Below, piece by piece: positions 16,177-59,734 of a stretch of DNA of 59,734 bases. Position numbers and translations under genes: made by a program. This DNA is from a bacterium (lineage in GTDB: Bacteria > Patescibacteriota > Microgenomatia > UBA1406 > GWC2-37-13): NCBI GenBank assembly GCA_021787635.1, contig JAJYLO010000001.1, forward strand, positions 1-59,734. The letters run 5' to 3'. Under the pieces are notes generated by a model. It saw nothing but the letters and a program-made list of their open reading frames with translations. It was not told the origin of the DNA and searched no databases. The stretch's first letter is position 1. Each line of letters opens with the position of its first letter.

Positions 16177-18090
16177 TTATTTTGAGATTTGAATTTTGAG
16201 ATTTGAGATGGTTTCTTTCAGCTGGTTGATTTCCTGCTGTTGTTGATTCACCTGATTCGTTAGATCGTTCAACTTTTTACCCACATCGACGCCGTTGACG
16301 ATGATCTGTTTTGCTTCCAAAAGACCCACTTTGATATGGCCGACAACCGCCTCGGCAAAAGCAGCAATTTGGGTAATGAGATTGCCGTGGATATCTTTAA
16401 CCTGACTGTTTTCATTAATAATTGCGCCACCTTCAGAATTAATATTTATGAACTTCGTAATATGCTGCAGATCAGTTATTTCTGCTCGTTGTGTTTGGAT
16501 CATGGATGTGTAGTCAAATGAGGAAAGCTTGTTTACTTGAGCAGAGATTGTTGCGACATTTTTAGCTAAAGCTTGGATACCAATCAGTGCGACACCAGAA
16601 GGATCGATCGTAGAAATAGCTTTATCCGTACCGTTTAATCCAAAGAGAGAATAGAAATCTTCAGCGACAGGACCGATGTGTTTTGCCGAAGGATCTTCAG
16701 TTTTATAATTCCATTCAGTGATTGGAAGCTGGTTGATCTTTTGTAATATAATATAAGGATTCAGTGCAGTGAAATTCTCTTTGACATCGCGGCTTGAACT
16801 ATTCTGCCAGGTGCTGCCATCGCTATAGGCACCTCCAGAAAGTTGAAAAAGATGGGAAGGACTCGTCGTCCCGATGCCGACTTTGCCACCACCATCTTGT
16901 AAGATCAAGTTTCCCCACGCGGATCCCGGTTTCAATGCATTAATAACACCAAAATTATTTGTGTCATTATAGCCGATTCTCACCCCATCTTGACCTGTAC
17001 CTGTAATAATTCCTGATCCAAAAATCGCGTGTTGAGAATCTGTATCATGGTTTATCCAGACAGGTAAGACAACTTGAAGTTTTCCTGCCGGACTCGTCGT
17101 CCCTATCCCGACGTTGCCGCTGCTGCCGTTATTTAATATAATTTTTGAACCATCCAAATACAGTGGTAAATAACCTGGGGAAGTTCGGTTATATGCTCGC
17201 AAGTTAGCTTCAATGCCATCCCAGGTTAATTCGGCTCCTGATCCACTGGTTGGGGCAACTTGGTTTATAGCCCTTATGGTTCCATTCACGTCGAGCTTTG
17301 CATAAGGTGCCGTCGTCCCGATGCCGACATTGCCACTTCCTGTAATACGCATGAAGATAGATTGATTAAAGGTGGTATTGTTGGAATGGAAGAAGTCCAT
17401 ATTACCGGTATTTGAAGAATTGGAAGCCATTCCAATACCCCAAGCTTCTCTAGTGGGATCACCAAGTACCCAGGATCCTGTTGCAAATGAGGCATTATTG
17501 CTTATGTCACCATATTTTGTAGTTAATGGATCAAAAGCTAATAATTCCAAGGAGCTGACTGTACCAAGAGAAATACGGGCATTATTTGTAGAGTAATTAA
17601 CCACTTGAAGAGCGTGCGCCGGAGTCGTCGTCCCGATACCGACGTTGCCGATAACACCAAGATCAGAGGATAACAGAACTGCATTCGAGAATGTTACACC
17701 AGGATCTGTAAGCGGTGGGGTGCTACCACCACCTTGAGTTCTGCTAACTGTTAGATTTCCAGAATTGTTAACTGTAAAAGATTCATAATTAGAAGTGTCA
17801 TAGCCAAGTCTGAGTTGTTCGGTAGTGGATAAAATGTGGAGATTAGCTCCTGGACTTGTCGTCCCGATGCCGACGTTGCCGTTAACATAGAGTTTGGCCG
17901 TGCCGCCGGTGACGTCGCCGCCGATGCCGACTTGATTAAAATTTTGGATGCCGCCTAAATGGGCATCGATGGTTAAATTGCCGGGATGGCCTATTCCGAG
18001 GGCCGGTACCGCTCTAAAAAGTTGAACAGCAATGAAACTGATAGTAATAAAAAAAAGAGTGATTAAAACTAGACGGATGGTAGTTTTCAT
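16177..18090 (-). CDS. Tail-fibre-like surface protein with GNVGIGTT repeats and a C-terminal peptidase-S74 intramolecular chaperone domain
   Basis: Signal/TM at the N-terminus. At least 6 copies of GNVGIGTT(S/A)P. SSSRDVKENFTALNPYIILQKINQLPITEWNYK..HIGPVAEDFYSLFG..VALIGIQAL matches the endosialidase/tail-fibre chaperone (S74) pattern, followed by a coiled coil. Confidence 0.8.
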   Translation of the reverse strand: MKTTIRLVLITLFFITISFIAVQLFRAVPALGIGHPGNLTIDAHLGGIQNFNQVGIGGDVTGGTAKLYVNGNVGIGTTSPGANLHILSTTEQLRLGYDTSNYESFTVNNSGNLTVSRTQGGGSTPPLTDPGVTFSNAVLLSSDLGVIGNVGIGTTTPAHALQVVNYSTNNARISLGTVSSLELLAFDPLTTKYGDISNNASFATGSWVLGDPTREAWGIGMASNSSNTGNMDFFHSNNTTFNQSIFMRITGSGNVGIGTTAPYAKLDVNGTIRAINQVAPTSGSGAELTWDGIEANLRAYNRTSPGYLPLYLDGSKIILNNGSSGNVGIGTTSPAGKLQVVLPVWINHDTDSQHAIFGSGIITGTGQDGVRIGYNDTNNFGVINALKPGSAWGNLILQDGGGKVGIGTTSPSHLFQLSGGAYSDGSTWQNSSSRDVKENFTALNPYIILQKINQLPITEWNYKTEDPSAKHIGPVAEDFYSLFGLNGTDKAISTIDPSGVALIGIQALAKNVATISAQVNKLSSFDYTSMIQTQRAEITDLQHITKFININSEGGAIINENSQVKDIHGNLITQIAAFAEAVVGHIKVGLLEAKQIIVNGVDVGKKLNDLTNQVNQQQQEINQLKETISNLKIQISK

Positions 18091-18137
18091 AGAATTACTG
18101 GATTTAGTTTAAGAATAATCCTTAATAAAGGAAAAAG

Positions 18138-19328
18138 TCAAGGGGGGCATTTGCCGGGATTGTCTTGACAACATTCGGTGCGGGTGCAATAAAATTTATT
18201 CGGTTGGCAGACGCTAGGGTCAAAATACCCGTTACAGTCGCCGCCAATATTCAGGCACCATTTTCCGCAGGACGGCGTCTGGGGAAACTGGTTGGGGCTG
18301 GAAACAGCATACTGGTAATTATGATCACTGTTGGTGCCGCAGCCGCCGACGCCATTACATCCCAGCTGGGAAATGATCGGGTCGCTGGTATTGTTGAGGC
18401 TACTATAAATAATGTATGATTTGGGGCACATGTTGGTGCAGTTGATTGTCGGACAATAGCCGGTGCAGGTGGTCGAATCGACCTGGTAAAGATATTCTTT
18501 GGTGGCATGTTGCGGGTCACAGGGCAGCTGGCTTAGATAAGGGGTAAGAGATGGTGAAGACGATTCGGTGCCGCAAATATAACAGGTTTGCCACCGGGAA
18601 ATTTGATAGCCCCCCACCCCGGTACAGATATTGCTAAATCCCGCCGGTGTCGGTACCGGCTTTTGGTAACAAATCTGGTCCGGCCGGGGATAGCAGCTGT
18701 GATCATTGTAATAATCCTCAAGGACTTTTCGGAGAGTGTCAAGGTCGTGCTTCCGGCGTGCGTCTTGCGCTTTGGCAATTTGCTGCCAGGGATTTAAAAG
18801 CCACAAGGTGGCGGCGGCGAGGAGGGCAAGGAGGGCGATGACGATCGTCAGCTCGAGGAGGGTGAAACTGCTTCGGGTAATAGATTTAGAAGATGGAAGA
18901 TGGAAGATGAGAGATGGAAGATGGAAGATGAGAGATGGAAGATGAGAGATGGAAGATTGAAGATAACGAATTAATCCTATTAATAATTTGCCGATTTCAT
19001 CAGCCTCTTTCTGTAATTGGGAATAGGTTCTGCTATCTAAATAATATAGATCTTTAGCTAGTAAAAGATGATATTTTGTTTCCGCTAACGAACCCTTAGC
19101 TGTATAAAGAAATTGGAGATATTCTTTGCGAGATTTCTTTTCATTACCTTCGACGATATTAGCGGAAATTGAAGAAGCGGATCTTCTAAGTTGATCAACC
19201 AGCAGGTACTTTTCTTCTTTAGGAAACTTTTTAGTAATTTGGTATATTGACAGAACAAACTGATGAGCTTTTTGCCAAACGATCAATCTCTCAAACTTAT
19301 TTAATTTTTTATTATCTTCCATCTTCAA
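18138..19328 (-). CDS. Chimeric ORF: four-helix-bundle protein (23S rRNA IVS / S23p / Avd-like) joined in frame through a heptamer-repeat linker to a Cys-rich type IV pilin-like protein
   Basis: Residues 1-124, LIVWQKAHQFVLSIYQITKKFPKEEKYLLVDQLRRSASSISANIVEGNEKKSRKEYLQFLYTAKGSLAETKYHL, fit the four-helix-bundle family. The linker is SHLPSLIFHLPSLIFHLPSS. Then comes a prepilin motif TRSS/FTLLELTIVIALLALLAAA and a ~230-aa domain with more than 20 Cys. Confidence 0.75.
   Translation of the reverse strand: MKMEDNKKLNKFERLIVWQKAHQFVLSIYQITKKFPKEEKYLLVDQLRRSASSISANIVEGNEKKSRKEYLQFLYTAKGSLAETKYHLLLAKDLYYLDSRTYSQLQKEADEIGKLLIGLIRYLQSSISHLPSLIFHLPSLIFHLPSSKSITRSSFTLLELTIVIALLALLAAATLWLLNPWQQIAKAQDARRKHDLDTLRKVLEDYYNDHSCYPRPDQICYQKPVPTPAGFSNICTGVGGYQISRWQTCYICGTESSSPSLTPYLSQLPCDPQHATKEYLYQVDSTTCTGYCPTINCTNMCPKSYIIYSSLNNTSDPIISQLGCNGVGGCGTNSDHNYQYAVSSPNQFPQTPSCGKWCLNIGGDCNGYFDPSVCQPNKFYCTRTECCQDNPGKCPP
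18892..18961. repeat. Ten tandem heptamers GATGRRA (plus strand) forming the linker between the four-helix-bundle and pilin parts
   Basis: Read directly: gatggaa gatggaa gatgaga gatggaa gatggaa gatgaga gatggaa gatgaga gatggaa gattgaa. Confidence 0.9.
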
Positions 19329-19344
19329 TCTTTAATCTTCTATC
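19314..19344. repeat. 4.4 tandem heptamers ATCTTYN, the reverse complement of the 18892-18961 unit
   Basis: atcttcc atcttca atcttta atcttct atc. Covers the TTG/ATG start of the four-helix-bundle ORF and abuts the stop of the giant gene. Confidence 0.85.
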
Positions 19345-22300
19345 TAATTAATGATCAGCCAATTAAATTGTATATTGTTTATCACCGGTTTATCAATAGT
19401 AATGATAAAGTATGGCTTATCGCTGACGATCTTTTGGCTGACCGTCAACGGCGGGGAGCCAGGCGTGGTGGGGGTAATGTAGATCAGGGAATCGGCCTTC
19501 ACACTACTATTATATATAAGTATCTCGGTGGAGTTCGCCGGCAAAATGCCGACACCCGCCGATTGTGACTTCGTCTCAATGGCCGGGGCATTGATCCCGT
19601 TCTGGACCAGATTATCAGGCGCGGCAATCACCGCCGCCGACGAGGTGGCGTCCATATATTTATTGCCAATTGCTAAATTGTTGATTGTTAAATTGTTGAA
19701 TTGAGCCGATCCCGAAGCATCAATAGATGCGACCGTGTCTCCCACCGGATTCTTGATCTGCAGCCCCTGGGCGATGATTTCGCCTTTGGTCGTGATTGTC
19801 CCGTCGCGGGCGATGACGACGCCGCCGTCAAACAAGGTGATCGTATTAAACGCCGACAGTTTCAAATCGGAGGCGAGGGAGAGAATGGAATTATTTTCAA
19901 TAAACGTCTGGCCGATAAGCATGGAACCGGCGACGGAAACGTTGTAAAGATTAGATTGGCCGGTGACGGTCAGGGAGTCGGATTTTAGATCTAAGATGGA
20001 AGATGGAGGATTGGAAGATGAAGAACTTCCATCTGTTATCTTCGATCCTCCACCTAATGTAATATTCTGGTAATAATTTGCATTCGGCAACGGCTGATTT
20101 TGAATTTTGGCGAGCAACGATTGGATATCGTTCACGTTCGATGATAATGTATCGAGCGACGACGATTGGGAAGCGACATTATTTTCCAACTGATTGATAT
20201 TTTCCGACCGGACATTTTGGGCGACAAGAGTGCCGGAAACAGTCGCCGATTGAGCAACGAGTGTCCCGGAAATGGTCGCATTTTGCGCAGAGAGCGTACC
20301 GCTGAATGAGGCATTGCCGGCAGCGTCAATACTGGCGACAGTGGCATTATTGAGGCCTCTAATGATAATTTTGGCAAGTTTGCCTTTATCGTTAGGGGGT
20401 AGGGAGTTGGGAGTAGGTTGTAGGTTAATCGTCAAATCTCCATTTTGTGGTGCAATTTCGTTCGTCTGTATTTTATTTAGTTGTGCCGAGCCGGTGGCGA
20501 CAATGTCTTTGGTTTCGGCAATCGGCGAAACGACGGATTGTGAACCGAGAACCGCCCGGATTCTGTTATCGATATAATCCTGAAGGCTTTTGCCGGCGAT
20601 AGTAATATTGCCGCTGGTGACATTGAGGCTGTCGGTAACGATATTTTGAGCATTGACCAACCCGGCCGTCAATTTGCCAATAACTGCTTGGGCGTAGGCG
20701 CCGATATCGTCGACGATAGTGCCCGTGTCAAACTTGACGGTATAACCGTTATTATTTAAATTCCCGTCATATACCAGCTGGGGCGTGCTGACGTTGCCGG
20801 AGGAATCGACGTTCAGCCGGCTCATGTCCGGATCGTTGATGGTCAGGCCGCCAACATCCGATGACGAGCGGGTATTTTTCCACTGGGCGTAGTCGAAGCG
20901 GGGCGCGGTCAGCCGGTAGCTGACGACGGTCGGCCGCGAGGCGTAAATAACCAATTGGAAATTGGCCGGGTCGACCGTATACCAAGTGCGGGCATTGGTG
21001 GTCGGCGTCAGGAGCGGAATCAGGTTTTGCATCGTATTGCGCAAATTGGTGACTTTGGCAAAAAGCCACAGGTCGGACGCTTTATCGGCATTATTGAAAT
21101 TGATGATATGGCGGTAGCCGACGCCGGCGACGTGCTCGTTGACGGCGACGGTGCCGGTCGTTTCTTCTTTGACGCCGGTCATTGACGGGTTATAAGTGGC
21201 GTATTTTTCGCCATTAATGACGTACGGCGGATCGATCGTGCCGGCGTCGATTTTGCCATCGCAGTTGGCGACGCCGGAAGAATAAGTGGTGTTGACGCAC
21301 AGGGTGGCACTGGGGGTAGCAGTGCTATTTATTATCAGCGTGCTGCCGGAGGCAGCAGTGATTGTCGGGCCGTTGGTCGGGCCGCCGGGGGTATTGTCTT
21401 CCAATATCATGTTCCAGTTGGTATCGGTGTTTTGGGCATATGAGTGTAACATGTTTATATAGCTCATGCCGGCCGGATCAAGATAGCGAGTATTGTCGGA
21501 ATTGTCGTAATACTTTTCAGCGTTGATACTGCCGCTGCCGACGTCCAATCTTTGTGTCGGGCTGGTTACGCCGATCCCCACATTACCGCTGACATAAAGT
21601 TCATTACTTTGTGGTAAGGCATTTGCCGGTAATGAGCCGATGGCGACGGAGCCGTTGACATCCAGTTTATCCAAGGGAGCGGTGGTGCCGATGCCTAAAT
21701 TACCGGTAATATCGCTATTGCCCGATACTTCGAGTTTATTGGCCGGCGCGGTCGTTCCAATGCCCACATTGCCGTTGTTTAAGACTGTCAGCCCCCTAGT
21801 CGTACCGTCGGCCGCCAGTGTGGAAAAGATATTGATGGGGGTAGCGGTAATCACCCACTGGTCATTTAAAGTATGGCCGGTTGTGGCTCCAAAAGTAATC
21901 GTTACTCCATTAGTCAGCGTCTGGGCCGATCCGGTGATGGCGACGCCTGTCGTCCATGATCCCGCGCCTTTTTGCCACTTGAAGGTATCCGGTGTCCCTG
22001 TCGCGTCGATGACGACGGTATAGGTCTGGGCAGTAGTATCGGTACCGGTATAAGTGCCGCCGGAAGTGGCATCATTTAAGCCGGTGCCGGTAAAGACGGC
22101 GCTGCCGATACTGCCCGATCCTTTGACATCCAATTTGTATGCCGGTGAAATGGTGCCGATGCCGACGTTGCCACTGCTATCTATCAACATCCGATACGCT
22201 GTTGCTGTACTGTCATAAATACCAAAAGCTCCGCTATTAGCTCCCAATGTACCAAGACTCTGTACTAACCAGTCCCGGGAAGCTTTAAGTTCCAAATTAG

Positions 22301-23918
22301 AATTATAGGAAGTGTTCGCATTTTCGACTAAACTAGTTAAATTTGCGGTAGAATTTTGATAAACATGTAACTTTTGACTCGGCCCCGTCGTCCCAATTCC
22401 CACATTGCCGGAAACATATAACTCATTACTTTGTGGTAAGGCATTTGCCGGTAATGAGCCGATGGCAGCTGAACCATTCACGTCCAGCTTGTTTAATGGG
22501 GTAGTGGTGCCGATGCCGACGTTGCCATTTTGGTCTATTCTCATTCTTTCAGATACGCCAGAGACTCCTGTAGCGAAAGTCAAACTTCCAGTTGAATCGT
22601 TCCCAATATAATTATTGTTTGTTGCTGAAGCATAATAGGTGTAGATCTTGTTTCCTATACTGTTTCCAGTAGTAATATTTCCACGTACGTCTAGTGTCTG
22701 AACTGGACTCGTCGTCCCAATCCCGACGTTGCCGCCGTTTTTGACGTATAAATTATCGCTACCAGCGGTTTGTAATCTTAAATTCCCGCTTTCCGAAGCA
22801 TTGAGGATGATGTCGCCGGTCGACGCCGACTGGATGGTAACTGCCGCGGCGCTTGTCAAAGCGAAAGTGGCGCTAGTCGCTGTCGAGCGGATGCCGGGCG
22901 CCGCCGCCGCCAGTAGCAGATCACCATCTTTATTGATAAAGGGAACGTTGCTGGTATTTCCACCAGGCGGCAGGCCCTGAAGGGTCGCGGCATTCATCGC
23001 ATATCCCACGTTCGCAATTTGTTGGCGCGGAGTCATTTCCGCATCGCTTGCCACTTGTATACTCATATAAACATTGGCATTTTCGGTAAAGACCGATGGA
23101 TCGATTTGGCTCCCGCAGACCGACTGGGGTGGAGTGGGGGAATAGCCCGATCCGCCAATGAGAACAGAAAAGATTCCGTCCGTATCGGGAGTGATAGAAC
23201 AAGCACCGGTGTCATAAAGCATGGTGCCGGCTGCGGGGGCATTGTACAGGCGGAAATCGACATTGACGGCCGAATTGATCGGATTTTTAGTGCTGTCGGT
23301 GAGGCGGCCCTGGAAGGAAAGAATCCGGCCAGCGGTAACCGGCGCAATAGGGTAAGCAAACGTCCGTGGACTTTTGTTAAAGAATTGATTGTAAAGTCCC
23401 GCACCGAGGACAGCGAGGAAGATTATAACAATGGTAAAGGCGACGTATTGTTGCGGTGACAATTCCTGTAGGGACGCGGTTTCTGCGCCCTTCATATTTT
23501 GTGTACGGGTGGTTGACGGGTCGGGAGACCCGGCCCCAACATTTTTGATGTTCAATAACGGAATCCGTTTCAATATCCCGAAAATGAATGATTTAATTTT
23601 ATTGGCCGATTCGAACTGGTCGATTGACGGCACGGTATCGATGATCATTCTGGCTTCAGATCGGGCTTGTTCCGTGTTCCGCGTTTTTCCGCGTTGATTT
23701 CCGCGTTGTTCGGCGGTGGCGCTGGAAAGATAATTAGCGATTAGTGGTCTTATCTGCTGATAGGAGGCAGTATCTATAAACCCCTTCCCGTGAGCCCAAT
23801 CTAAAAACTTATCCACCGACCGTAATTTCTTGGCCACAGTTGAGGAAGATTCTCCACGATCGTGAAGAGTTTGGATATAGCCTCGAATTGTTTCCGGTCT
23901 AATCGATTTAAAATTCAT
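19344..23918 (-). CDS. Giant (1524 aa) membrane-anchored surface protein: N-terminal integrase SAM-like (core-binding) domain, one TM, extracellular fibre with GNVGIGTT repeats
   Basis: The N-terminus ETIRGYIQTLHDRGESSSTVAKKLRSVDKFLDWAHGKGFI resembles the Xer/phage-integrase N-terminal domain. TM is YVAFTIVIIFLAVLGAGLY (~aa 158-176). Repeats such as LYVSGNVGIGTTGPSQ follow. Confidence 0.8.
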   Translation of the reverse strand: MNFKSIRPETIRGYIQTLHDRGESSSTVAKKLRSVDKFLDWAHGKGFIDTASYQQIRPLIANYLSSATAEQRGNQRGKTRNTEQARSEARMIIDTVPSIDQFESANKIKSFIFGILKRIPLLNIKNVGAGSPDPSTTRTQNMKGAETASLQELSPQQYVAFTIVIIFLAVLGAGLYNQFFNKSPRTFAYPIAPVTAGRILSFQGRLTDSTKNPINSAVNVDFRLYNAPAAGTMLYDTGACSITPDTDGIFSVLIGGSGYSPTPPQSVCGSQIDPSVFTENANVYMSIQVASDAEMTPRQQIANVGYAMNAATLQGLPPGGNTSNVPFINKDGDLLLAAAAPGIRSTATSATFALTSAAAVTIQSASTGDIILNASESGNLRLQTAGSDNLYVKNGGNVGIGTTSPVQTLDVRGNITTGNSIGNKIYTYYASATNNNYIGNDSTGSLTFATGVSGVSERMRIDQNGNVGIGTTTPLNKLDVNGSAAIGSLPANALPQSNELYVSGNVGIGTTGPSQKLHVYQNSTANLTSLVENANTSYNSNLELKASRDWLVQSLGTLGANSGAFGIYDSTATAYRMLIDSSGNVGIGTISPAYKLDVKGSGSIGSAVFTGTGLNDATSGGTYTGTDTTAQTYTVVIDATGTPDTFKWQKGAGSWTTGVAITGSAQTLTNGVTITFGATTGHTLNDQWVITATPINIFSTLAADGTTRGLTVLNNGNVGIGTTAPANKLEVSGNSDITGNLGIGTTAPLDKLDVNGSVAIGSLPANALPQSNELYVSGNVGIGVTSPTQRLDVGSGSINAEKYYDNSDNTRYLDPAGMSYINMLHSYAQNTDTNWNMILEDNTPGGPTNGPTITAASGSTLIINSTATPSATLCVNTTYSSGVANCDGKIDAGTIDPPYVINGEKYATYNPSMTGVKEETTGTVAVNEHVAGVGYRHIINFNNADKASDLWLFAKVTNLRNTMQNLIPLLTPTTNARTWYTVDPANFQLVIYASRPTVVSYRLTAPRFDYAQWKNTRSSSDVGGLTINDPDMSRLNVDSSGNVSTPQLVYDGNLNNNGYTVKFDTGTIVDDIGAYAQAVIGKLTAGLVNAQNIVTDSLNVTSGNITIAGKSLQDYIDNRIRAVLGSQSVVSPIAETKDIVATGSAQLNKIQTNEIAPQNGDLTINLQPTPNSLPPNDKGKLAKIIIRGLNNATVASIDAAGNASFSGTLSAQNATISGTLVAQSATVSGTLVAQNVRSENINQLENNVASQSSSLDTLSSNVNDIQSLLAKIQNQPLPNANYYQNITLGGGSKITDGSSSSSNPPSSILDLKSDSLTVTGQSNLYNVSVAGSMLIGQTFIENNSILSLASDLKLSAFNTITLFDGGVVIARDGTITTKGEIIAQGLQIKNPVGDTVASIDASGSAQFNNLTINNLAIGNKYMDATSSAAVIAAPDNLVQNGINAPAIETKSQSAGVGILPANSTEILIYNSSVKADSLIYITPTTPGSPPLTVSQKIVSDKPYFIITIDKPVINNIQFNWLIIN
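19994..20054. repeat. Heptamer-built imperfect hairpin lying in frame inside the giant gene
   Basis: agatggaagatggaggattggaagatgaag aa cttccatctgttatcttcgatcctccacc. Arms ggaggat/atcctcc and gatgaag/cttc(c)atc. Same GAAGATG unit as around the four-helix-bundle ORF. Confidence 0.7.
23670..23716. repeat. Irregular tandem TTCCGCG(TT) repeats in frame in the giant gene's cytoplasmic part
   Basis: ttccgtg ttccgcg tttttccgcg ttgatttccgcg ttgttcggcgg encodes (minus strand) AEQRGNQRGKTRNTEQ. Confidence 0.7.
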
Positions 23919-24324: not shown

Positions 24325-24780
24325 TTATGAATTTATAATGGTGAAAAACTCGTTGAGATCATCTAAATCGTCACTTTGCGCCTCCGTGTCGGATTGGAAT
24401 TGAATCAAGGTGTTAGATAATGATATTGATCCAACGTTACCGATTTTTTTCGCCACATTTTCCTTTATCCAGCCTTGGGTGATGCAGAAAGAACAAAACT
24501 TTCGCATTGTTGAGAGGCGACGATTAATGGTTTTGGGAGGAATACGATTAGTGGTTAGATAATTTTTATATTCGGCGATTGTTTCGGCGGTTAACAATTT
24601 TTGTAGGAGCAAGGCTTCCTCGTCCTTATTTACTACATTTTGTTGCGTATTTGTTATCCACCCGGCGAAATGCCGGAAATCAGACAGGTAATTCTTGATT
24701 GAAACCGGTTTGGCATTTCCCGCAAAAAGGTAATTCCGAAACGGGGCCTCAAAATTATAAAGATTATACGGGTGAACCAT
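24325..24780 (-). CDS. Stand-alone integrase SAM-like (core-binding) domain protein, no catalytic domain
   Basis: SIKNYLSDFRHFAGWI..TAETIAEYKNYLTTNRIPPKTINRRLSTMRKFCSFCITQGWIKEN. Only 151 aa. First gene of the minus-strand operon. Confidence 0.7.
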   Translation of the reverse strand: MVHPYNLYNFEAPFRNYLFAGNAKPVSIKNYLSDFRHFAGWITNTQQNVVNKDEEALLLQKLLTAETIAEYKNYLTTNRIPPKTINRRLSTMRKFCSFCITQGWIKENVAKKIGNVGSISLSNTLIQFQSDTEAQSDDLDDLNEFFTIINS

Positions 24781-24966: not shown

Positions 24967-25037
24967 ATAAATCTTATAGTAATATGTCCTTATAGTTGAT
25001 ATGTTCTTATAGTTGATATGTTCTTATAGTTGATATG
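24967..25037. repeat. 17-bp direct repeats (3 good + 1 degenerate copy), iteron-like
   Basis: atgtccttatagttgat (24984-25000), atgttcttatagttgat (25001-25017), atgttcttatagttgat (25018-25034), preceded by ataaatcttatagtaat. Confidence 0.9.
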
Positions 25038-35374: not shown

Positions 35375-36115
35375 TTAATATGACGGTGTTGCCACAAAAT
35401 TGATAATCGTCTGATAGCTGCCTGCGGGTTGAGTATTACTGACGTTAACTTTATAGGTAATGGTCGACTGGCGGTTGGTACCGACCGTACTGCTGCTCAT
35501 AACAACGGCCGGCGAAGAAATGCTGGCAAACGGCCGGTAATAAGTGCTGTTGATAAAATCGGCCGGGATGTCGTTGCCGCTCATGTTGTATCCGAAACCA
35601 TAAGCCGTACCGGAACTCCAGACTTTGGCGGTTCCCGTATTACAGGTGTTGCTGCCGCCGTCGCAACTGGTGTCGGGGATAGTGGTTGTCGGATTACTTA
35701 AAAGTGCCATTGAGCTGTTTTCACCGGCTGTTACCTGATACTGGCCGGCGCCGCCATAATCGATCGTCAGTGTAGCATTGGCGGTGCTGGGAGTTTGGGC
35801 ACTCAAAGTGCCCAAGTTGATATTGGTATTGGATATGACGAAGCGAAAAGGGATAATGGAGTGAAGATATTGAAAACCGGCCAAAATATAGTAACCGGAG
35901 GAAGAAAAACTGCCGGCTGCCGTTTGACCGACCGTATCGGAAAGGGCATAGTTAGTTGAACTTTTATTGCCGGCTGCATCGCTGACGTTAGCCGACTCGA
36001 TCTTGTAGTCTGGTGAGTACATGCTTACCGCTTGGACCGGGGTATTTAATATGAAGTATTGAGTATAAAGTATGGGGAATACAACCAATCCAATATAAAA
36101 TACCAAATACCTCAT
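35375..36115 (-). CDS. Secreted surface protein with a WxL-like C-terminal motif (paralog of 27754..29202)
   Basis: Signal peptide, T/S/G/N-rich, ends GSYQTIINFVATPSY. Confidence 0.5.
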   Translation of the reverse strand: MRYLVFYIGLVVFPILYTQYFILNTPVQAVSMYSPDYKIESANVSDAAGNKSSTNYALSDTVGQTAAGSFSSSGYYILAGFQYLHSIIPFRFVISNTNINLGTLSAQTPSTANATLTIDYGGAGQYQVTAGENSSMALLSNPTTTIPDTSCDGGSNTCNTGTAKVWSSGTAYGFGYNMSGNDIPADFINSTYYRPFASISSPAVVMSSSTVGTNRQSTITYKVNVSNTQPAGSYQTIINFVATPSY

Positions 36116-36133
36116 ACTTTATACTTAATACTT
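36054..36133. repeat. 21-bp inverted repeat (1 mismatch) spanning the start codon and signal-peptide codons of gene 35375..36115
   Basis: aagtattgagtataaagtatg (36054-36074) against catactttatacttaatactt (36113-36133). The right arm contains the start codon (complement of 36113-36115). Confidence 0.8.
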
Positions 36134-36152
36134 AATGCTAATGATTAAATGA

Positions 36153-37043: not shown

Positions 37044-37625
37044 ATGGCAGAAGATCAGAATCAGACTGTGCCGGTTGCGCCAGAACCGCAGCCAACCCCC
37101 TCAACGGGTAAATGGTATGTTATTCATATCCAAACCGGCTATGAAAGCCGGGTCAAGCATGCGCTGGAGCAGCGGGTAAAAAGCCTTGGTGTTGAGGGCA
37201 AGATTTTTGACGTCGTTATTCCCACCCGGGAAGTGGTTGTTGTCAAAAAAGGCAAAAAGACTAAAGCGACGGAAAAAGTTTTTCCCGGCTATATCCTTAT
37301 TCAGATGATTCTTGATGACGATTCGTGGTTGGTGGTGCGGACGACCGAAGGTGTTACCGGTTTTGTCGGCGCCGGCCTTAAACCGACCCCGATTTCCGAA
37401 AAAGAAGTCGAGGCAATTATGAAGTTTGTTACCCAGGAACAGCCGAAATTCAAGACGAAATTTTCCGTGGGCGAAGCGGTCAAAATCACCGAAGGGCCGT
37501 TTGCCGACTTTTTGGGCACGATTGAAGGAATCGACGAGGAACGGGGGAAGGTTAAAGTACTGGTTTCGATTTTTGATAGGGAAACGCCGGTGGAGCTGGA
37601 TTTTTTACAAGTGGCGAAATTATAA
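37044..37625 (+). CDS. nusG: Transcription termination/antitermination factor NusG
   Basis: KWYVIHIQTGYESRVKHAL (NGN); FSVGEAVKITEGPFADFLGTIEGID..KVKVLVSIFDRETPVELDF (KOW). Confidence 0.95.
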   Translation: MAEDQNQTVPVAPEPQPTPSTGKWYVIHIQTGYESRVKHALEQRVKSLGVEGKIFDVVIPTREVVVVKKGKKTKATEKVFPGYILIQMILDDDSWLVVRTTEGVTGFVGAGLKPTPISEKEVEAIMKFVTQEQPKFKTKFSVGEAVKITEGPFADFLGTIEGIDEERGKVKVLVSIFDRETPVELDFLQVAKL

Positions 37626-37707
37626 TTTTCAATTTACAATTTTCAGTTTTTAAACGGTTTGAAAACTGATAATTGATTGAAAATTGAGAACTGAAAATTG
37701 AAAATTT
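37625..37707. repeat. Heptamer-built hairpin filling the nusG-rplK intergenic region
   Basis: Left arm aattttc aatttac aattttc agttttt. Loop aaacggt. Right arm ttgaaaa ctgataa ttgattg aaaattg agaactg aaaattg aaaattt. Confidence 0.8.
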
Positions 37708-37714
37708 AATAGAT

Positions 37715-38137
37715 ATGGTAAAAAAAGTAAAAACAATCATTAAGCTCAATCTCCCCGCCGGGGAGGCGACTCCGGCGCCGCCGGTTGGTCCGGCTTTGGG
37801 CCAGCATGGCGTGCCGATAATGGACTTTATTAAGGAATATAATGCCCGGACGGCGAAATTAAAAGGGCAGATTATTCCGGCGGTGATTACCGTTTATGAG
37901 GACCGGTCGTTTACTTTTATTACTAAACTGCCGCCGGTCGCCGCCATGATTAAGAAAAAAATATCGTTGCAAAAAGGTTCGGGCCGTCCCAATACGGAAA
38001 AAGTTGGCAAATTAACCAAGGCGCAGGTCGAGGAAATTGCCAAGGAAAAACTGGCCGATTTGAACACGGATAACATTGAGGCGGCGATGAAAGTCGTTGC
38101 CGGAACGGCGAGATCGATGGGGATTGAAACGGAGTAA
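37715..38137 (+). CDS. rplK: 50S ribosomal protein L11
   Basis: [35 protein letters not shown]. Confidence 0.95.
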
Positions 38138-38164
38138 TTTTTAATTTTAAATTTTTAATTTTAA

Positions 38165-38962
38165 ATGGGAAAAGTCAAAGCACGATTACTTGGAGACGTT
38201 GAAGTCGAGAAGAAACAGAAAGAGGAAGCGAAAACTAAAGCCGCGGAAAAAAAGATGAAAAAAACACAGAAGGAAGAAACGCCAAAAGACGCAAAACAAG
38301 TTGGGGTTGGATTTTCCAGCCCGAAAAAGGAAGAAAAAAAATCCGCTCCGCCTTCGCTTAAGCTTCGGCGGACAAGGGGTAAAAAATACCAGGCGGCTAA
38401 AACATTAGTCGATAAAAATAAGTTTTATCCGTTAGACGAAGCGATAGCTTTGCTGAAAAAAATGGCACTGGCCGCTTTTGACGAAGCAGTTGAGCTTCAC
38501 CTTAATGTTAATGAAACCGGCTTGAAAGGCGAAGTGGAATTGCCTCACAGCACGGGTAAAACCGTGCGCATTGCCGTCGTCAACGACGCGGTCCTTGCCG
38601 ATATCGAAAAAGGAAAAATCGATTTTGATATTTTGATTACTCATCCGTCTTTTATGCCGAAGCTGGCGCGGTTTGCTCGAGTCTTAGGTCCGAAAGGCCT
38701 GATGCCTAATCCCAAAGCGGGCACGATTTCCACCAATCCCGATGAAGTGGTTAAAAAATTTACTAAAGGGACATTGCGTTGGAAAACCGAACCGAAATTT
38801 CCACTTGTCCACCAGATGATCGGCCGAAAATCGTTTGACGAAAAAGAATTAGCGGCCAATGCCGAAAAATTCATTCAGTCAGTTGGGCCTAATCGTATCA
38901 CCAAGGCATTCATCAAAACCACGATGAGTCCGGCGGTGCAGTTGGAAATTAATAAGGAATAA
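38165..38962 (+). CDS. rplA: 50S ribosomal protein L1 with a ~70-aa Lys/Glu-rich N-terminal extension
   Basis: The canonical L1 core starts at ..RGKKYQAAKTLVDKNKFYPLDEAIALLKKM. The preceding 70 aa are low-complexity and contain the hairpin element at 38347-38372. Confidence 0.9.
   Translation: MGKVKARLLGDVEVEKKQKEEAKTKAAEKKMKKTQKEETPKDAKQVGVGFSSPKKEEKKSAPPSLKLRRTRGKKYQAAKTLVDKNKFYPLDEAIALLKKMALAAFDEAVELHLNVNETGLKGEVELPHSTGKTVRIAVVNDAVLADIEKGKIDFDILITHPSFMPKLARFARVLGPKGLMPNPKAGTISTNPDEVVKKFTKGTLRWKTEPKFPLVHQMIGRKSFDEKELAANAEKFIQSVGPNRITKAFIKTTMSPAVQLEINKE
38347..38372. repeat. Hairpin element tccgcc-N14-ggcgga, in frame in the rplA N-terminal extension
   Basis: tccgccttcgcttaagcttcggcgga encodes PPSLKLRRT. 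Homologous copy at 47933-47958. Confidence 0.7.
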
Positions 38963-50614: not shown

Positions 50615-50636
50615 TTCGCAATCGGAAAATTGCAAT

Positions 50637-51623
50637 ATGCATAATCATGTAATATTAGGCGGTACCTTTGACCATTTCCATAAAGGTCATCAAGCGCTTA
50701 TTGACAAAGCGTTAGCGGTCGGAAAAAAAGTATCAATCGGCATCGCCGGAGAAAATTTGTACAAAAATAAGTTCTTAGCGGAGTCGATCGAGCCATACGA
50801 AATTAGATACGGTTCTGTCCGTCATTATTTGCAACAAAAAGGAGCGCTGGGACAAGTAAAATTAACGCCGATCAGTAATATTTTCGGTTCGTCAATTGCC
50901 AACCCGGCCGTTGATGCCGTTATTGCCTCTAGACAAACATATCAAAATACATTATTAGTCAATCAAAAGCGGTCGGAAAATGGTTTGCGCGAGCTCAAAA
51001 TCATTATTGTCGATAACGTTTTGGCGGCCGACGGAAAATTGCTGTCATCGGAAAGAATCCGGACGGGAGAAATTGACCGGGAAGGAAACTTGTATGTGAA
51101 TATTTTCCGTGAAAATTTAAATTTACCGGATAATTTACGGGAGGAATTACGAAAGCCGCTGGGAAAAGTGTTTTCCGATGTAGTGGCGTTTCGTGAAGCG
51201 CCCGCAAAATCAATAATGATAATTACTGTTGGCGATATTGTTTCCCGGTCGCTCGAAGAGGAGGGAATAACGCCGGACGTGAAGATTGTGGATTTTCGAT
51301 CTAGAAGAAAAGATTTACTCGAAGTATCCCGGGTCGTACGAAATAGGCCTCGGCGCAATTCGCAGATTACTAATCATCCCGGAACAATTAATAAATTAGC
51401 TTCCGAAAGTATCCAGATAGCAATTAAAAATTTTCTAAAATTGTACGAAAAACAGACTATTGTCATTGACGGCGAAGAAGATTTGCTGGCCTTACCGGCA
51501 ATTTTATTGGCACCGTTGAATTCGTTGGTTCTTTACGGTCATTTCGAGTTGGGTATTATCGCGGTAACGGTGACGGAGGAGGAGAAGGCGGAGGTGAAAA
51601 AGCTTGTCGGTAGGTTTATTTGA
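50637..51623 (+). CDS. Fusion protein: archaeal/eukaryotic-type phosphopantetheine adenylyltransferase + DUF359 (archaeal GTP-dependent dephospho-CoA kinase family)
   Basis: N-part VILGGTFDHFHKGHQALIDKAL. C-part ITVGDIVSRSLEEEGITPDVKIVDFRSRR..IVIDGEEDLLALPAILLAPLNSLVLYGHFELGIIAV (DUF359 signature). Confidence 0.7.
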   Translation: MHNHVILGGTFDHFHKGHQALIDKALAVGKKVSIGIAGENLYKNKFLAESIEPYEIRYGSVRHYLQQKGALGQVKLTPISNIFGSSIANPAVDAVIASRQTYQNTLLVNQKRSENGLRELKIIIVDNVLAADGKLLSSERIRTGEIDREGNLYVNIFRENLNLPDNLREELRKPLGKVFSDVVAFREAPAKSIMIITVGDIVSRSLEEEGITPDVKIVDFRSRRKDLLEVSRVVRNRPRRNSQITNHPGTINKLASESIQIAIKNFLKLYEKQTIVIDGEEDLLALPAILLAPLNSLVLYGHFELGIIAVTVTEEEKAEVKKLVGRFI

Positions 51624-51639
51624 ATGTATAATATACTCT

Positions 51640-54315
51640 ATGTCGGCTAAATATCAACCGCAAGAATTCGAAAAAAAATGGATTGAACACTGGGATAAAA
51701 ATAAAACGAATAAAACCATCAATCCGGACAAAAATCGCCAAAAGGAATATATACTAGCAATGTTTCCGTATCCGTCCGGTGCCGGTCTGCATGTTGGTCA
51801 CGTCCGTGTATATACCGGTACAGACGTTTTAGCCCGTTACTTTCGAATGAATGGTCGCGCAGTTATGAATCCGATGGGTTGGGATGCTTTTGGTCTGCCG
51901 GCGGAAAATGCTGCCATTAAGGCGAAAAAAAATCCGATGGATATGGTGCCGGAGCATATTGTTAACTTTAAAAAGCAGATGAAAATGTTGGGGTTCTCCA
52001 ATGACTGGGACAAGGAATTGGCAACGACTGACCCCAACTACTACAAATGGACCCAGTGGTTATTTATCCAATTTTACAAAATGGGGCTATTATATAAAAA
52101 AAATACCCCGATTAATTTCTGCCCGGTTTGTAAAACCGGTTTGGCTGAAGAGGAAGTGCTACCCAATGGTACGCATGAACGGTGTGGTAACAAAATCGAA
52201 AAACGGGAATTGCCGCAGTGGATTTTTAAAATCACGGATTACGCGGATCGTTTACTGGCGGATTTAGACAGATTAGATTGGCCAAAGGGGATTTTGGAAA
52301 TGCAACGGAACTGGATCGGACGTAAAGAGGGTATGAATATTACGTACGATGTTGTCGATAATAAGGATGTTCGATACCGCGTTTCTCACTCCAGTGGGTC
52401 TCCTAGCCACTTCGTGGCAGACATCCCAAGCCGTTCAAAACGGATATCTTCGCTTCCGATTATCGACAAAATAACATGTTTCACCACTCGACCAGATACT
52501 AATTTTGGCGCCACATTTATCGTGTTAGCACCTGAACACCCGTTCGTCGCTTCGCTCCTAAATTCAAAAATCAAAATTCAAAAATCAAAATGGGGAGAAA
52601 TAAAACAATATGTTGAAAAGGCAAAAGCAAAAACGGAAATGGAGCGGGAAGCAGAAAGCCGGAAAAAAACCGGCGTATCAACCGGTTTTTACGCCGTCAA
52701 TAACTTGACCGGTAAATTAATGCCGGTGTGGGTATCCGATTTTGTCCTGATGGGTTTTGGCACCGGCGCCGTCGTCGGTGTTCCCGGTCATGATATGCGC
52801 GACTTTGAATTTGCCAGGGAATTCGGTCTGGAAATAATCCGGGTGGTTGTCGGCCGCGATGGCGATAAATCACCAATTACCAAAAAGGAGCAGATTCAGG
52901 AAAAAGAAGGATCGATGATAAATTCGGAATTCCTTAACGGATTGGATATTCATGAAGCCACAAAGAAAATTATGGATTATTTGGAAGAAAAAGGTTGGGG
53001 AAAACGGCAGGTGACTTACCATTTGCGCGACTGGATTTTTTCGCGGCAGCGATATTGGGGTGAGCCGATCCCGATGATTTTTTGCGAAAAATGCGCAAAA
53101 AATCAAGTTCAAAGTTCAAAATTCAAAGTTCAAAATGGGATGGCTGGATGGTATCCGGTTCCTGAAGACCAACTACCAGTTAAGCTACCTTACGTCAAAA
53201 GTTATGAGCCAACGGGAACAGGGGAGTCGCCGTTATCTGCCATTAAAGATTGGATGAATACAACTTGTCCGAAGTGCGGCGCGCCGGCGAAAAGAGAGAC
53301 GGACACGATGCCGAATTGGGCGGGAAGCTGCTGGTATTTTATCGCATTTGCGTTTTGGGGAGAAAATAGCAATTCGGAAACGGAAAGAATAGCTTTTGCT
53401 TCATTGCCGCCATCAATTGGAAATTGGAAATTAAAAATTGAAAATTCGGGTAACCGTTGGTTACCCGTTGATTGGTATTTGGGCGGCGCCGAACATGCCG
53501 TTTTACATTTATTATATTCCCGTTTCTGGGTGAAAGCCCTGTATGATTTAAAATTGCTGGATTTCAAAGAGCCGTTTGCGCGCTTAAGGAATCTGGGAAT
53601 GATTATTGCTGCCGACCACCGGAAAATGAGCAAGTCTTTCGGTAATGTCATTAATCCCGATGATGTCGCCGCCGAATTCGGTGTCGACGCGCTGCGGATT
53701 TATGAAATGTTCATGGCCCCTTTCAGCCAGGAAATCGCCTGGTCGGATACGGCACTGCAGGGATCGTACCGGTTTATAAAAAGAGTGTGGGCGATGTATC
53801 AACAATATGGTACCATTGCGAGGAGCGAAGCGACGAAGCAAAATGACAATCTTGTTGTTAAATTAAACAAAACCATTGCCAAAGTGACCGCCGATATTCC
53901 ATTGACCAAATTCAATACCGCAGTGGCGGCGATGATGGAATTTTTGAACGAGTGGGAAAACAATTATTTGTCTGACGATAACGCAAAAAAATTTCTGCAA
54001 ATTTTGGCGCCGTTTGCTCCTTTCACCACGGAAGAAATCTGGCATGAAATTTTCGGCGAAAAAGAGTCGATTCATTTATCGGCCTGGCCGAAAGCGAAAG
54101 AAACCACTGTTGTCGAAGAAGAAATAACGATTCCGGTGCAGGTGAACGGGAAAGTGAGGGCAGTAATAAAAATTCAAAATTCAAAATTCAAAATTCAAAG
54201 TGATGTTGAAAAACAAGCGATACAAGACGAGAAAGTAAAGAAATATGTGGAGGGGAAAAAGTATAAAGCGATTTACGTACCGGGAAAAATCCTTAACTTT
54301 GTATTAACAAGCTAA
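51640..54315 (+). CDS. leuS: Leucyl-tRNA synthetase (with several low-complexity in-frame insertions)
   Basis: MFPYPSGAGLHVGHVRVY (HIGH-type), TTRPDTNFGATF, KMSKSFGN. The start is set at ATG 51640 (MSAKYQPQEFEKKW). Confidence 0.95.
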   Translation: MSAKYQPQEFEKKWIEHWDKNKTNKTINPDKNRQKEYILAMFPYPSGAGLHVGHVRVYTGTDVLARYFRMNGRAVMNPMGWDAFGLPAENAAIKAKKNPMDMVPEHIVNFKKQMKMLGFSNDWDKELATTDPNYYKWTQWLFIQFYKMGLLYKKNTPINFCPVCKTGLAEEEVLPNGTHERCGNKIEKRELPQWIFKITDYADRLLADLDRLDWPKGILEMQRNWIGRKEGMNITYDVVDNKDVRYRVSHSSGSPSHFVADIPSRSKRISSLPIIDKITCFTTRPDTNFGATFIVLAPEHPFVASLLNSKIKIQKSKWGEIKQYVEKAKAKTEMEREAESRKKTGVSTGFYAVNNLTGKLMPVWVSDFVLMGFGTGAVVGVPGHDMRDFEFAREFGLEIIRVVVGRDGDKSPITKKEQIQEKEGSMINSEFLNGLDIHEATKKIMDYLEEKGWGKRQVTYHLRDWIFSRQRYWGEPIPMIFCEKCAKNQVQSSKFKVQNGMAGWYPVPEDQLPVKLPYVKSYEPTGTGESPLSAIKDWMNTTCPKCGAPAKRETDTMPNWAGSCWYFIAFAFWGENSNSETERIAFASLPPSIGNWKLKIENSGNRWLPVDWYLGGAEHAVLHLLYSRFWVKALYDLKLLDFKEPFARLRNLGMIIAADHRKMSKSFGNVINPDDVAAEFGVDALRIYEMFMAPFSQEIAWSDTALQGSYRFIKRVWAMYQQYGTIARSEATKQNDNLVVKLNKTIAKVTADIPLTKFNTAVAAMMEFLNEWENNYLSDDNAKKFLQILAPFAPFTTEEIWHEIFGEKESIHLSAWPKAKETTVVEEEITIPVQVNGKVRAVIKIQNSKFKIQSDVEKQAIQDEKVKKYVEGKKYKAIYVPGKILNFVLTS
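52561..52590. repeat. Heptamer tract in leuS (aattcaa aaatcaa x2)
   Basis: aattcaaaaatcaaaattcaaaaatcaaaa encodes NSKIKIQKSK. Confidence 0.8.
53104..53136. repeat. Heptamer tract in leuS (AARTTC-A x4-5)
   Basis: caagttc aaagttc aaaattc aaagttc aaaat encodes QVQSSKFKVQN. Confidence 0.8.
53415..53449. repeat. Heptamer tract in leuS (AATTGRA x5)
   Basis: aattgga aattgga aattaaa aattgaa aattcgg encodes IGNWKLKIENSG. Confidence 0.8.
53813..53845. repeat. Second copy of the 'cattgcgaggagcgaagcgacgaagcaa' element, in frame in leuS
   Basis: ccattgcgaggagcgaagcgacgaagcaaaatg encodes TIARSEATKQN. About 80% identical to 29537-29570 by eye. Confidence 0.65.
54169..54196. repeat. Four perfect tandem heptamers AAAATTC in leuS
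   Basis: aaaattc x4 encodes KIQNSKFKIQ. Confidence 0.9.

Positions 54316-58331: not shown

Positions 58332-58348
<17 letters not shown>
55787..58348 (-). CDS. Large secreted M23-family metallopeptidase with a Pro/Thr-rich linker and beta-rich flanking domains
   Basis: Signal peptide. (P/T/S)-rich 90 aa. [47 protein letters not shown]. Confidence 0.85.

Positions 58349-59734
<1,386 letters not shown>

Follow-up and report, generated by a model that had tools for sequence, protein, structure and literature searches.

Intervening sequences (IVSs) have been described since the early 1990s, and the S23p/four-helix-bundle (4HB) and GxxExxY protein families are abundant, with no function or means of spread known to us. 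Here, we analysed a locus of a Roizmanbacteria-like bacterium of the candidate phyla radiation (CPR), contained in a 59,734-nucleotide stretch of DNA (contig JAJYLO010000001.1 of assembly GCA_021787635.1, positions 1 to 59,734; hereafter, the window), in which an open reading frame (ORF) for a 4HB protein of the IVS type continues without interruption into a type IV pilin gene, and where a selfish cassette of the IVS type probably occupies the leader-peptide region of that gene. The closest described system is the 23S rRNA IVS of Coxiella burnetii, in which an S23p ORF lies inside a 28-bp terminal stem and three to four tandem GACAGAT heptamers, inside the same stem, are found just upstream of the codon at which S23p starts; strains differ in how many they have, and the first repeat is where RNase III cuts (PMC4990558). 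In Haemophilus influenzae, an (ATCTTTC)n tract in the 5' untranslated region of hmw1A pairs with a purine-rich arm and is cut by RNase III, and its copy number tunes the expression of the adhesin (PMC12721329). On the protein side, class III signal peptides have a leader that stays cytoplasmic and is cut after residue -1 on the cytoplasmic face of the membrane, with a hydrophobic helix as anchor (PMC4471445).

Like the S23p-bearing 23S IVSs of Coxiella burnetii and Leptospira (PMC4990558), the window cassette combines a PF05635 protein with a stem of ~28-32 bp around its ORF, and, as in the Coxiella IVS, heptamers reach the start codon of the ORF and vary in copy number. Unlike them, it is flanked by two protein genes of a protein-coding operon instead of being inserted in 23S rRNA (helix 25/45), its ORF has no stop codon and reads into the host gene, and its excision by RNase III would harm that gene, whereas excision from rRNA leaves a functional fragmented rRNA. 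Moreover, the window cassette protein is under purifying selection, whereas the Coxiella ORF has been reported as decaying and probably untranslated (PMC4990558). A scan of positions 17900-19700 against Rfam detected neither rRNA nor any other known RNA family. With respect to hmw1A, the repeat unit is nearly identical (ATCTTCC vs ATCTTTC), is present in about 10 or more copies upstream of an adhesin or pilin, forms a long hairpin together with a purine-rich arm, and shows variable repeat numbers; unlike the tract in the 5' untranslated region of hmw1A, that of the window belongs to the translated sequence, where it separates the start codon from the main part of the protein, and it has a whole passenger gene enclosed.

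The original prediction for this DNA regarded the 396-aa ORF as chimeric, one part being a complete 4HB/S23p protein and the other a prepilin, with a 4HB ORF fused to a start-less pilin, and both the nature of the chimera and the fusion were confirmed, essentially where they had been placed (Table 1), by hidden Markov model (HMM) matches, AlphaFold2 (AF2) modelling, Foldseek searches, and a profile of the pilin family. With neither a stop codon in the cassette ORF nor a start codon in the pilin, both constitute a single reading frame. The cassette is located exactly between the stop codon of a giant upstream gene and the codon for F(+1) of the pilin, and in all related loci the cassette is bounded upstream by the conserved end of that giant gene (C-terminus ...NWLIIN, followed by TAG). 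The database copy of the fused protein (P0001) begins with MEDNKK.

Analysis of the N-terminal part revealed a match to PF05635 with E = 1.7e-41 (141 bits, cut-off 33.8) along residues ~13-117, covering positions 1-105 of the 106 in the profile, a match to TIGR02436 with E = 7e-40 (135.6 bits, cut-off 24), and a match to the bAvd family PF22296 (48.6 bits, cut-off 40); the score with the Avd equivalog NF033474 (56.6) was under its cut-off of 80. The AF2 model showed a four-helix bundle at residues 9-125 with a confidence score (pLDDT) above 90, followed by a disordered linker at residues 126-154 (pLDDT below 50), a long alpha-helix at residues 155-208, mostly confident (pLDDT 75-95), and, after residue 208, beta-strands of mixed confidence with low-confidence loops. 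In Foldseek, the bundle matched 2gsc (TM-score 0.94-0.96, root-mean-square deviation 1.2-1.5 A) and 2rld (TM-score 0.83-0.90), which are solved pentamers of the S23p family, and also the Avd protein 4dwl of diversity-generating retroelements (DGRs), with a TM-score of about 0.85-0.89; when the whole model was used, only 4HB matches and no match to a pilin fold were obtained. Therefore, the assignment of this part to the four-helix-bundle family PF05635/TIGR02436 is backed by both sequence and fold. The dN/dS ratio of the 4HB part, calculated against the related loci L001 and L049, was 0.08-0.15.

The 5' arm of the cassette is purine-rich (GATAGAA GATTAAA GATTGAA GATGGAA GATAAT), follows directly after the stop of the giant gene, whose TAG it overlaps, and contains the ATG of the cassette, in agreement with the predicted location of this tract over the start codon and against the giant-gene stop. 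The 3' arm is pyrimidine-rich, made of ATCTTCC/ATCTCTC heptamers that are the reverse complement of the 5' array, and is translated in frame as SSISHLPSLIFHLPSLIFHLPS. The heptameric nature of both tracts and the inverted orientation of their units had been correctly anticipated, with small corrections to their extents: analysis with Tandem Repeats Finder (TRF) gave 10.9 copies for the 3' tract, for which ten copies at 18892-18961 had been noted, and 4.6 copies for the 5' tract, noted as 4.4 copies at 19314-19344. The arms are complementary at 88% along 32 nt, and the duplex between them (-35.4 kcal/mol) is far more stable than those formed with arms from other loci (mean -18.1 kcal/mol), with none of the 28 cross pairs equalling it. 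In the minimum free energy fold of positions 18860-19360, the two tracts paired across the whole ORF, as had been proposed. The z-score of the whole-region fold was only -1.8, the signal being that of the arm-arm duplex and not of a 500-nt fold. Consequently, the comparison with rRNA IVSs made in the original prediction holds in terms of geometry, with terminal inverted repeats, a long stem around the ORF, and tandem heptamers beside the start codon, as in Coxiella (PMC4990558). The two arms resemble terminal inverted repeats that are specific to each type of cassette. Initiation at the ATG may be gated by their pairing, because this codon lies within the 5' arm, or the paired arms may attract RNase III.

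Table 1. Layout of the chimeric pilin locus, in the order of transcription (positions refer to the window).
Feature	Position	Strand	Remarks
Upstream giant gene	19344..23918	-	1524 aa, no Pfam match; C-terminus ...NWLIIN; TAG at 19346-19344
5' arm, heptamer array	19314..19345	-	TRF, 4.6 copies; inverted repeats
Chimeric ORF, one reading frame	18138..19328	-	396 aa from TTG; 394 aa from ATG at 19322
Alternative in-frame TTG	19328-19326	-	5' of the cassette ATG
Cassette ORF start ATG	19320..19322 (19322-19320)	-	Inside the 5' arm; sole canonical start for the pilin
4HB (S23p / 23S rRNA IVS protein / Avd-like) coding part	18963..19319	-	PF05635, TIGR02436, AF2, Foldseek, dN/dS
3' arm = linker tract	18889..18964	-	TRF, period 7, 10.9 copies
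End of leader, ..SKSITRSS, with Ser(-1) last	18867..18888	-	Sequence, start-codon scan
Mature type IV pilin	18141..18866	-	F(+1) 18866-18864; E(+5) 18854-18852; stop 18140-18138
Downstream gene, same operon	16177..18090	-	637 aa; Peptidase_S74 chaperone domain; GNVGIGTTSP repeats

In the pilin part, the region around the cleavage site reads SKSITRSS followed by FTLLELTIVIALLALLAAATLWLL (RSS|FTLLELTIVIALLALLAAATLWLL) and by a Cys-rich domain. The signature S|FTLLE, with a residue of small size at -1, Phe(+1), Glu(+5), and a hydrophobic stretch of ~21 residues (alpha1N), is that expected for a class III signal peptide. In profile searches, support for a prepilin came from the family as a whole: the single pilin sequence remained under the cut-offs of the N-terminal models (N_methyl, 19.1 vs 21.2 bits; TIGR02532, 14.5 vs 16.3), with a GspG match at 1.7e-6, and the family profile reached solved pilins among the sequences of the PDB (Geobacter PilA-N, 5e-13; PilA, 5e-7; GspG, 1e-6), aligning the F of the pilin with residue 1 of solved mature pilins. 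The dN/dS ratio of the pilin part at the window locus was 0.17-0.25. In addition, the Cys-rich C-terminal domain (18141-18700 in the window, and its orthologues) was found to be hypervariable, with 50-60% aa identity compared to 83-96% for flanks and cassettes, a pattern suggestive of recombination, or of diversifying selection acting on the exposed region of the protein.

No in-frame ATG, GTG, or TTG was detected within 35 codons upstream of the F codon, so that, as predicted, there is none between the tract and FTLLE. The only near-cognate codons near the cleavage site in the window are an ATT at 18881-18879 (codon -5) and an ATC at codon -14, inside the tract. The predicted dependence of the pilin on the upstream frame is matched by about 25 distinct fused loci, all of them in frame. 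The lack of a Shine-Dalgarno (SD) sequence was discarded as an argument against independent initiation of the pilin, being uninformative in this lineage: only 5 of the 66 pilins with their own start carry one.

A search with the pilin half recovered 28 homologues, most of them starting with MKKG|FTLxEL and several of ~400 aa with an N-terminal PF05635 or PF13366 domain. A scan at the DNA level with the pilin alignment then yielded 130 orthologous loci from Roizmanbacteria, Microgenomates, and other CPR genomes, each of them classified by the region upstream of F(+1); all the N-termini collected have E(+5), which the scan itself required. These loci contain 91 distinct junctions, 25 fused in frame to a stop-less cassette ORF vs 66 with their own start. 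In most of the fused junctions the pilin has no canonical start near F, and no locus among the 130 was both start-less and unfused. Comparison of the orthologues thus upheld the fusion as a recurrent, always in-frame arrangement, although not the only one, given the own-start junctions, and revealed no OFF allele. Residue -1 was small in both fused (G 10, S 7, A 5, C 4) and own-start loci (G 35, S 21, A 15), and the fusions retain the cleavage site.

Three cassette families were found at the fused loci: a short 4HB (TIGR02436; window, L001, and L049), a long 4HB (TIGR02436 plus a TIGR04258 suffix domain), and a GxxExxY protein (TIGR04256/PF13366), a nuclease of the PD-(D/E)XK type. Since each family has its own arm motif (GATGATA/GATGGAA for the short 4HB; a CTTAAGT-type motif with a 9-nt period for the long 4HB; CACGGAT/CACAGAT vs ATCCGTG/ATCTGTG with a 10-11-nt period for GxxExxY), the arms are a property of the cassette rather than of the site. 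Loci L107 and L106, which have near-identical pilins and align at about 84% on both sides, carry different cassettes; homology between them is lost where the giant gene ends and is regained 2 nt ahead of the F codon, so the whole leader-plus-cassette segment is replaced. This is the only pair with a clean cassette replacement. Recent mobility was also sought in cassette dS values much lower than those of the pilin, and this signal was rejected, as the flanks are equally similar and the outlier is the hypervariable C-terminal domain of the pilin.

Short-4HB cassettes also exist as stand-alone genes with arms on both sides, with an array ending at the ATG and its complement after the ORF: TATNTAG x5 and AGATACT x5 in L007, CTAGATG x8 and ATCATCT/AGGATCT in L027, and GATGATA and CTATCAT in L063. 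At the unfused loci L027, L114, and L014, the stop of the cassette overlaps the start of the pilin as an ATGA junction, and in L027 and L114 the 3' arm lies within the pilin's own leader, MKKHHLSSRIYHLGSNKA|F. Fusions probably originated by loss of the ATGA junction and merging of the two frames, with only in-frame mergers leaving a translatable pilin. Own leaders carrying a solo heptamer tract or a small palindromic insertion were detected too in L011 (MKSKRHNRLTSIIYHLPSNNSA|F), L019 (MKIGNWKLEIDSG|F), and L080 (MKKGLAPRSFLDLRSFSEGGSEVG|F), and the pilin leader is evidently a tolerant site for insertions. Along the same lines, own-start leaders of L080/L081 (~1953-2025), L132/L134/L136 (~1977-2022), and L065 (~1938-2022) showed an in-frame insertion, ...LAPRSF..SEVG|, which resembles a GC-rich palindromic mini-element and is a further sign of leader tolerance. 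In L011 (2269-2988) and L012 (1360-2079), an 87-aa GIY-YIG gene and a PhdYeFM antitoxin gene appear between the giant gene and the pilin; this lineage has no 4HB or GxxExxY cassette there, and its pilin leader still contains an ATCTATC heptamer tract. Finally, the long-4HB cassettes of L002 and L005 (P0003, residues ~108-121; P0012, ~29-40 and ~115-127) contain the internal repeat-like peptides PNLPNTPNLPNNP, LSHLSDLGDLSYLS, and LSHLSNLSPLGEL, which look like short tandem tracts inserted in the cassette ORF.

The linkers of the fused loci have at least 18 distinct lengths, and every fusion is in frame: 11 lengths, from 27 to 120 nt, were found with GxxExxY cassettes, 5 with long-4HB cassettes, and those of 45, 81, and 102 nt with short-4HB cassettes. 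The linker units are of 7, 9, or 10-11 nt, and for those of 7 and 10-11 nt two out of three unit-sized insertions or deletions would break the frame. Even internally deleted cassettes, such as those of L115 (100 aa) and L018, which have lost the full domain, keep the frame open from the ATG to the pilin. Both halves of the fused loci are under purifying selection, with dN/dS ratios of 0.11-0.45 for the pilin and 0.08-0.22 for the cassette. Ten of the 25 fused loci have no in-frame near-cognate codon (ATT, ATC, ATA, CTG) within 15 codons of F, and among these ten, in-frame GTG codons are present near F in L020, L024, and L118. In a second, independent assembly of this genome (L143), there were 0 mismatches with the window along 13,744 nt and a single gap, inside the linker tract, where it is 21 nt shorter, corresponding to three heptamers and keeping the frame. 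Accordingly, the length of this in-ORF tract of 7-nt units is variable, as had been suggested.

From the anatomy of the locus, its recurrence, and the conservation of the frame, all directly observed, we infer that the chimera would be translated as a fusion and then cleaved. Translation would begin at the ATG of the cassette, maybe in a manner coupled to the giant gene, whose termination lies about 20 nt upstream, giving a 394-aa precursor with a folded 4HB, a disordered repeat-encoded linker, a class III cleavage site, and the pilin. The hydrophobic alpha1N would insert N-in as a signal anchor, leaving the 4HB in the cytoplasm, and the prepilin peptidase would cleave between Ser(-1) and Phe(+1) on the cytoplasmic face, releasing a normal mature pilin and a free 4HB protein. 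In terms of topology, the class III pathway, in which leaders stay cytoplasmic (PMC4471445), is compatible with a folded N-terminal domain that has a disordered linker behind it. The prepilin leader would thus act as a safe harbour, where in-frame insertions are removed by the host's own protease, and loss of the pilin's own ATG would leave the host gene dependent on the start codon of the cassette. To judge from these sequences, the cassette protein is probably made as a giant prepilin leader and freed by the prepilin peptidase. In its general form, namely, that IVS-type cassettes (4HB, 4HB plus suffix, and GxxExxY) colonise the codons between the ATG and the cleavage site and are excised by the prepilin peptidase, with the host becoming start-dependent, the proposal is put forward more tentatively, at somewhat short of even chances.

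Several observations weigh against this interpretation. Known class III leaders are short and hydrophilic, with 6-26 aa counted from the pilin gene's own start codon (PMC4471445), and cutting of a leader like that of the window, with 152 residues and a folded domain, is not known to have a precedent. Residue -1 is Ser at the window locus, and the canonical residue is Gly. The ATT at codon -5, together with the rare use of SD sequences in the lineage, may permit weak independent initiation of the pilin here. A Pfam scan of the 20 larger ORFs of the window detected no prepilin peptidase (peptidase A24) or pilus ATPase; the presence of a prepilin peptidase in this genome is assumed from CPR bacteria in general. 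On the metagenomic contig L121 (276-1479), a frameshift splits the GxxExxY cassette (ORFs 276-569 and 532-1479), and the only start left to the pilin is an internal Met, 52 codons before F; a sequencing error could account for this, as could true decay or an OFF state. In favour of a passenger rather than a pilin module, the 120 closest 4HB and 103 GxxExxY homologues were all stand-alone proteins of 118-205 aa, which would fit a fusion tolerated specifically where a host protease removes the passenger, but this is weak evidence for a restriction of fusions to pilins, the searches being not exhaustive and known fused proteins not being listed again. Last, cutting by RNase III as in rRNA IVSs would cost the pilin its start codon, so the arms need another role here or protection by translating ribosomes; the stem may stay uncut while ribosomes traverse it, or cutting may lower the expression of the pilin.

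The original prediction saw the tract as a slipped-strand contingency switch, in which slippage of the 7-nt units toggles translation of the pilin ON and OFF while synthesis of the 4HB protein continues. The length of the unit is indivisible by 3, no stop closes any of the three frames of the tract, and the tract is expanded to 10.9 copies, vs 4.6 in the partner arm; it is also polymorphic between the two assemblies of one genome, and there are precedents in the heptamer copy number of Coxiella (PMC4990558) and in the hmw1A tract of H. influenzae (PMC12721329). However, the sole variant observed, of 21 nt, stays in the ON frame, none of the about 25 distinct fused loci is out of frame, the linkers of the long-4HB cassettes change in 9-nt steps that are unable to shift the frame, and most fused loci have short, imperfect tracts from which poor slippage is expected. 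Assemblies of a contingency locus that switches often would not be expected to show such a picture. This part of the prediction was therefore not borne out, and the switch is kept as a secondary possibility, arithmetically feasible on a demonstrably unstable tract, but unlikely. A process at the RNA level, with pairing of the arms, excision of the 4HB segment by RNase III, and translation of the pilin from the 3' fragment, is suggested by the likeness of the stem geometry and heptamer arms to the RNase III-processed IVS of Coxiella, and by the increase in downstream adhesin expression upon RNase III cleavage of the heptamer hairpin of H. influenzae (PMC12721329). Nevertheless, the cleaved fragment would have no AUG, GUG, or UUG and would be unusable as a normal or leaderless mRNA; as the cut would split the pilin coding region from its sole start, simple excision in the manner of an IVS conflicts with expression of the pilin. 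The frame, whose conservation this process would not require, is maintained with linkers of at least 18 lengths and even where cassettes have decayed, and the cassette ORFs of fused loci have consistently lost their stop codons, so we consider it improbable.

The continuous ORF and the purifying selection on both halves would also be expected of an uncleaved bifunctional membrane protein, with the 4HB or nuclease domain anchored by the pilin helix and no role as pilus subunit, and some loci have Ser or Cys at -1, neither of them canonical for a prepilin peptidase. Against it, three unrelated cassette proteins are interchangeable at one site on near-identical pilins, decayed cassettes are tolerated, most orthologues are ordinary short-leader prepilins, and S and A at -1 are found in own-start orthologues too, making such a protein a still more improbable explanation. 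A dead pilin, either a pseudogene or a gene-calling artefact, was ruled out by the dN/dS of the pilin (0.11-0.45) and by intact frames of ~240 codons everywhere. As for DGRs, the 4HB is Avd-like in its match to PF22296 (48.6 bits) and in its fold (4dwl), and the C-terminal domain of the pilin is hypervariable, as could be expected if an accessory protein of this kind acted on it. Unlike DGRs, the window contains no reverse transcriptase (RT) motif, no template-repeat copy of the pilin, and no pair of template and variable repeats, the NF033474 score is below its cut-off, and unrelated nuclease cassettes of the GxxExxY family share the same site, so that involvement of a DGR was rejected. Taken together, the chances of a dead pilin or of a DGR accessory are close to nil.

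Cleavage of the cassette protein as a prepilin leader would make the system comparable to inteins, as an in-frame selfish insertion tolerated by post-translational removal (here a proposal). Unlike the self-splicing inteins, removal of the passenger would use the host prepilin peptidase at a pre-existing site, and the element is N-terminal and supplies the start codon. The extra module of Streptococcus sanguinis PilB is reportedly grafted at the C-terminus of the pilin. In this modular type IV pilin (PMC8179133), the extra folded module is displayed on the pilus for adhesion; the window gene shares with it the combination of a pilin with an extra folded module, and differs in that the extra domain precedes the cleavage site and would stay in the cytoplasm and be cut off.

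Heptamer tracts are not special to the cassette, as they were found throughout the window and the lineage. Analysis with TRF detected 18 period-7 tracts in the window vs 1.6 in shuffled sequences (about 11-fold), and 78 vs 7 in 273 kb from 50 species-level related genomes, with a median length of 29.5 nt. Examples in the window are those at 16181-16209, 19993-20024, 36106-36136, 38135-38166, 48592-48615, and 50566-50623, which are A/T-rich, of ~29-32 nt and 4.1-4.6 copies. The unit varies by site, and many tracts lie exactly at gene ends or fill intergenic gaps; that at 38135-38166 spans from the stop of rplK to the start of rplA, and the 637-aa gene downstream of the pilin, which has the GNVGIGTTSP repeats in common with the giant gene, terminates in the tract at 16181-16209. 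In the nusG-rplK intergenic region, two inverted tracts of AATTTTC and ATTGAAA (37624-37650 and 37676-37706) form a near-perfect long hairpin (dG -25.4 kcal/mol, z = -5.8) with a loop without ORF, which, judging from its layout, would be an 'empty' version of the cassette stem. A weaker inverted pair was found at 50566-50623. In addition, the ORF for the essential leucyl-tRNA synthetase (51604..54315, + strand) contains four in-frame heptamer tracts (52560-52590, 53105-53134, 53415-53446, and 54169-54199), at least three of them corresponding to insertions with respect to the Thermus thermophilus enzyme (1h3n): 17 aa ('knqvqsskfkvqngmag'), about 10-13 aa ('signwklkiensg'), and 6 aa in 'skikiqksk'.

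Other repeats were also detected in the window. Region 59362-59734 (ORF 58332..59657, - strand) shows long tandem repeats of 27, 54, and 153 nt, whose consensus on the minus strand resembles, by eye, what we take to be Gly-X-Y repeats of the collagen type; a giant protein with a collagen domain is found beside the pilin cluster in L007. At 24972-25037, in a stretch without ORFs of at least 140 aa, a 17-nt tandem repeat, TCTTATAGTTGATATGT, is present in 3.9 copies with 92% matches, upstream of the operon of the giant gene and adjoining a small ORF (24325..24780, - strand) with a phage-integrase SAM-like domain.

A search of the literature retrieved no report in which S23p/4HB or GxxExxY proteins are fused to pilins, none of mRNAs that carry IVS-type cassettes, and very little on either family, in line with the novelty claimed in the original prediction. 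The kind of cassette is itself known; what is new here is its niche and the way in which it would be tolerated. In practical terms, the fusions are annotated only as S23/4HB or PDDEXK proteins, which hides the pilin in roughly one quarter of the distinct loci of the family. At these loci, the S23p/4HB and GxxExxY proteins appear as discrete cassettes with type-specific inverted tandem-repeat arms, under purifying selection and in a context that forces their translation, so that whether the proteins are made and what they bind become directly testable. If the proposal is true, a prepilin leader of 150-200 residues with a folded domain would go beyond what is known of class III signal peptides (6-26 aa) and of the substrates of prepilin peptidases, and a surface gene of the host would rely on the start codon of a selfish element. 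Likewise, the S23p/IVS proteins would be genuinely expressed and functional, and the repeat arms, with about 5 heptamers for a family that forms pentamers, may be binding sites of the cassette proteins.

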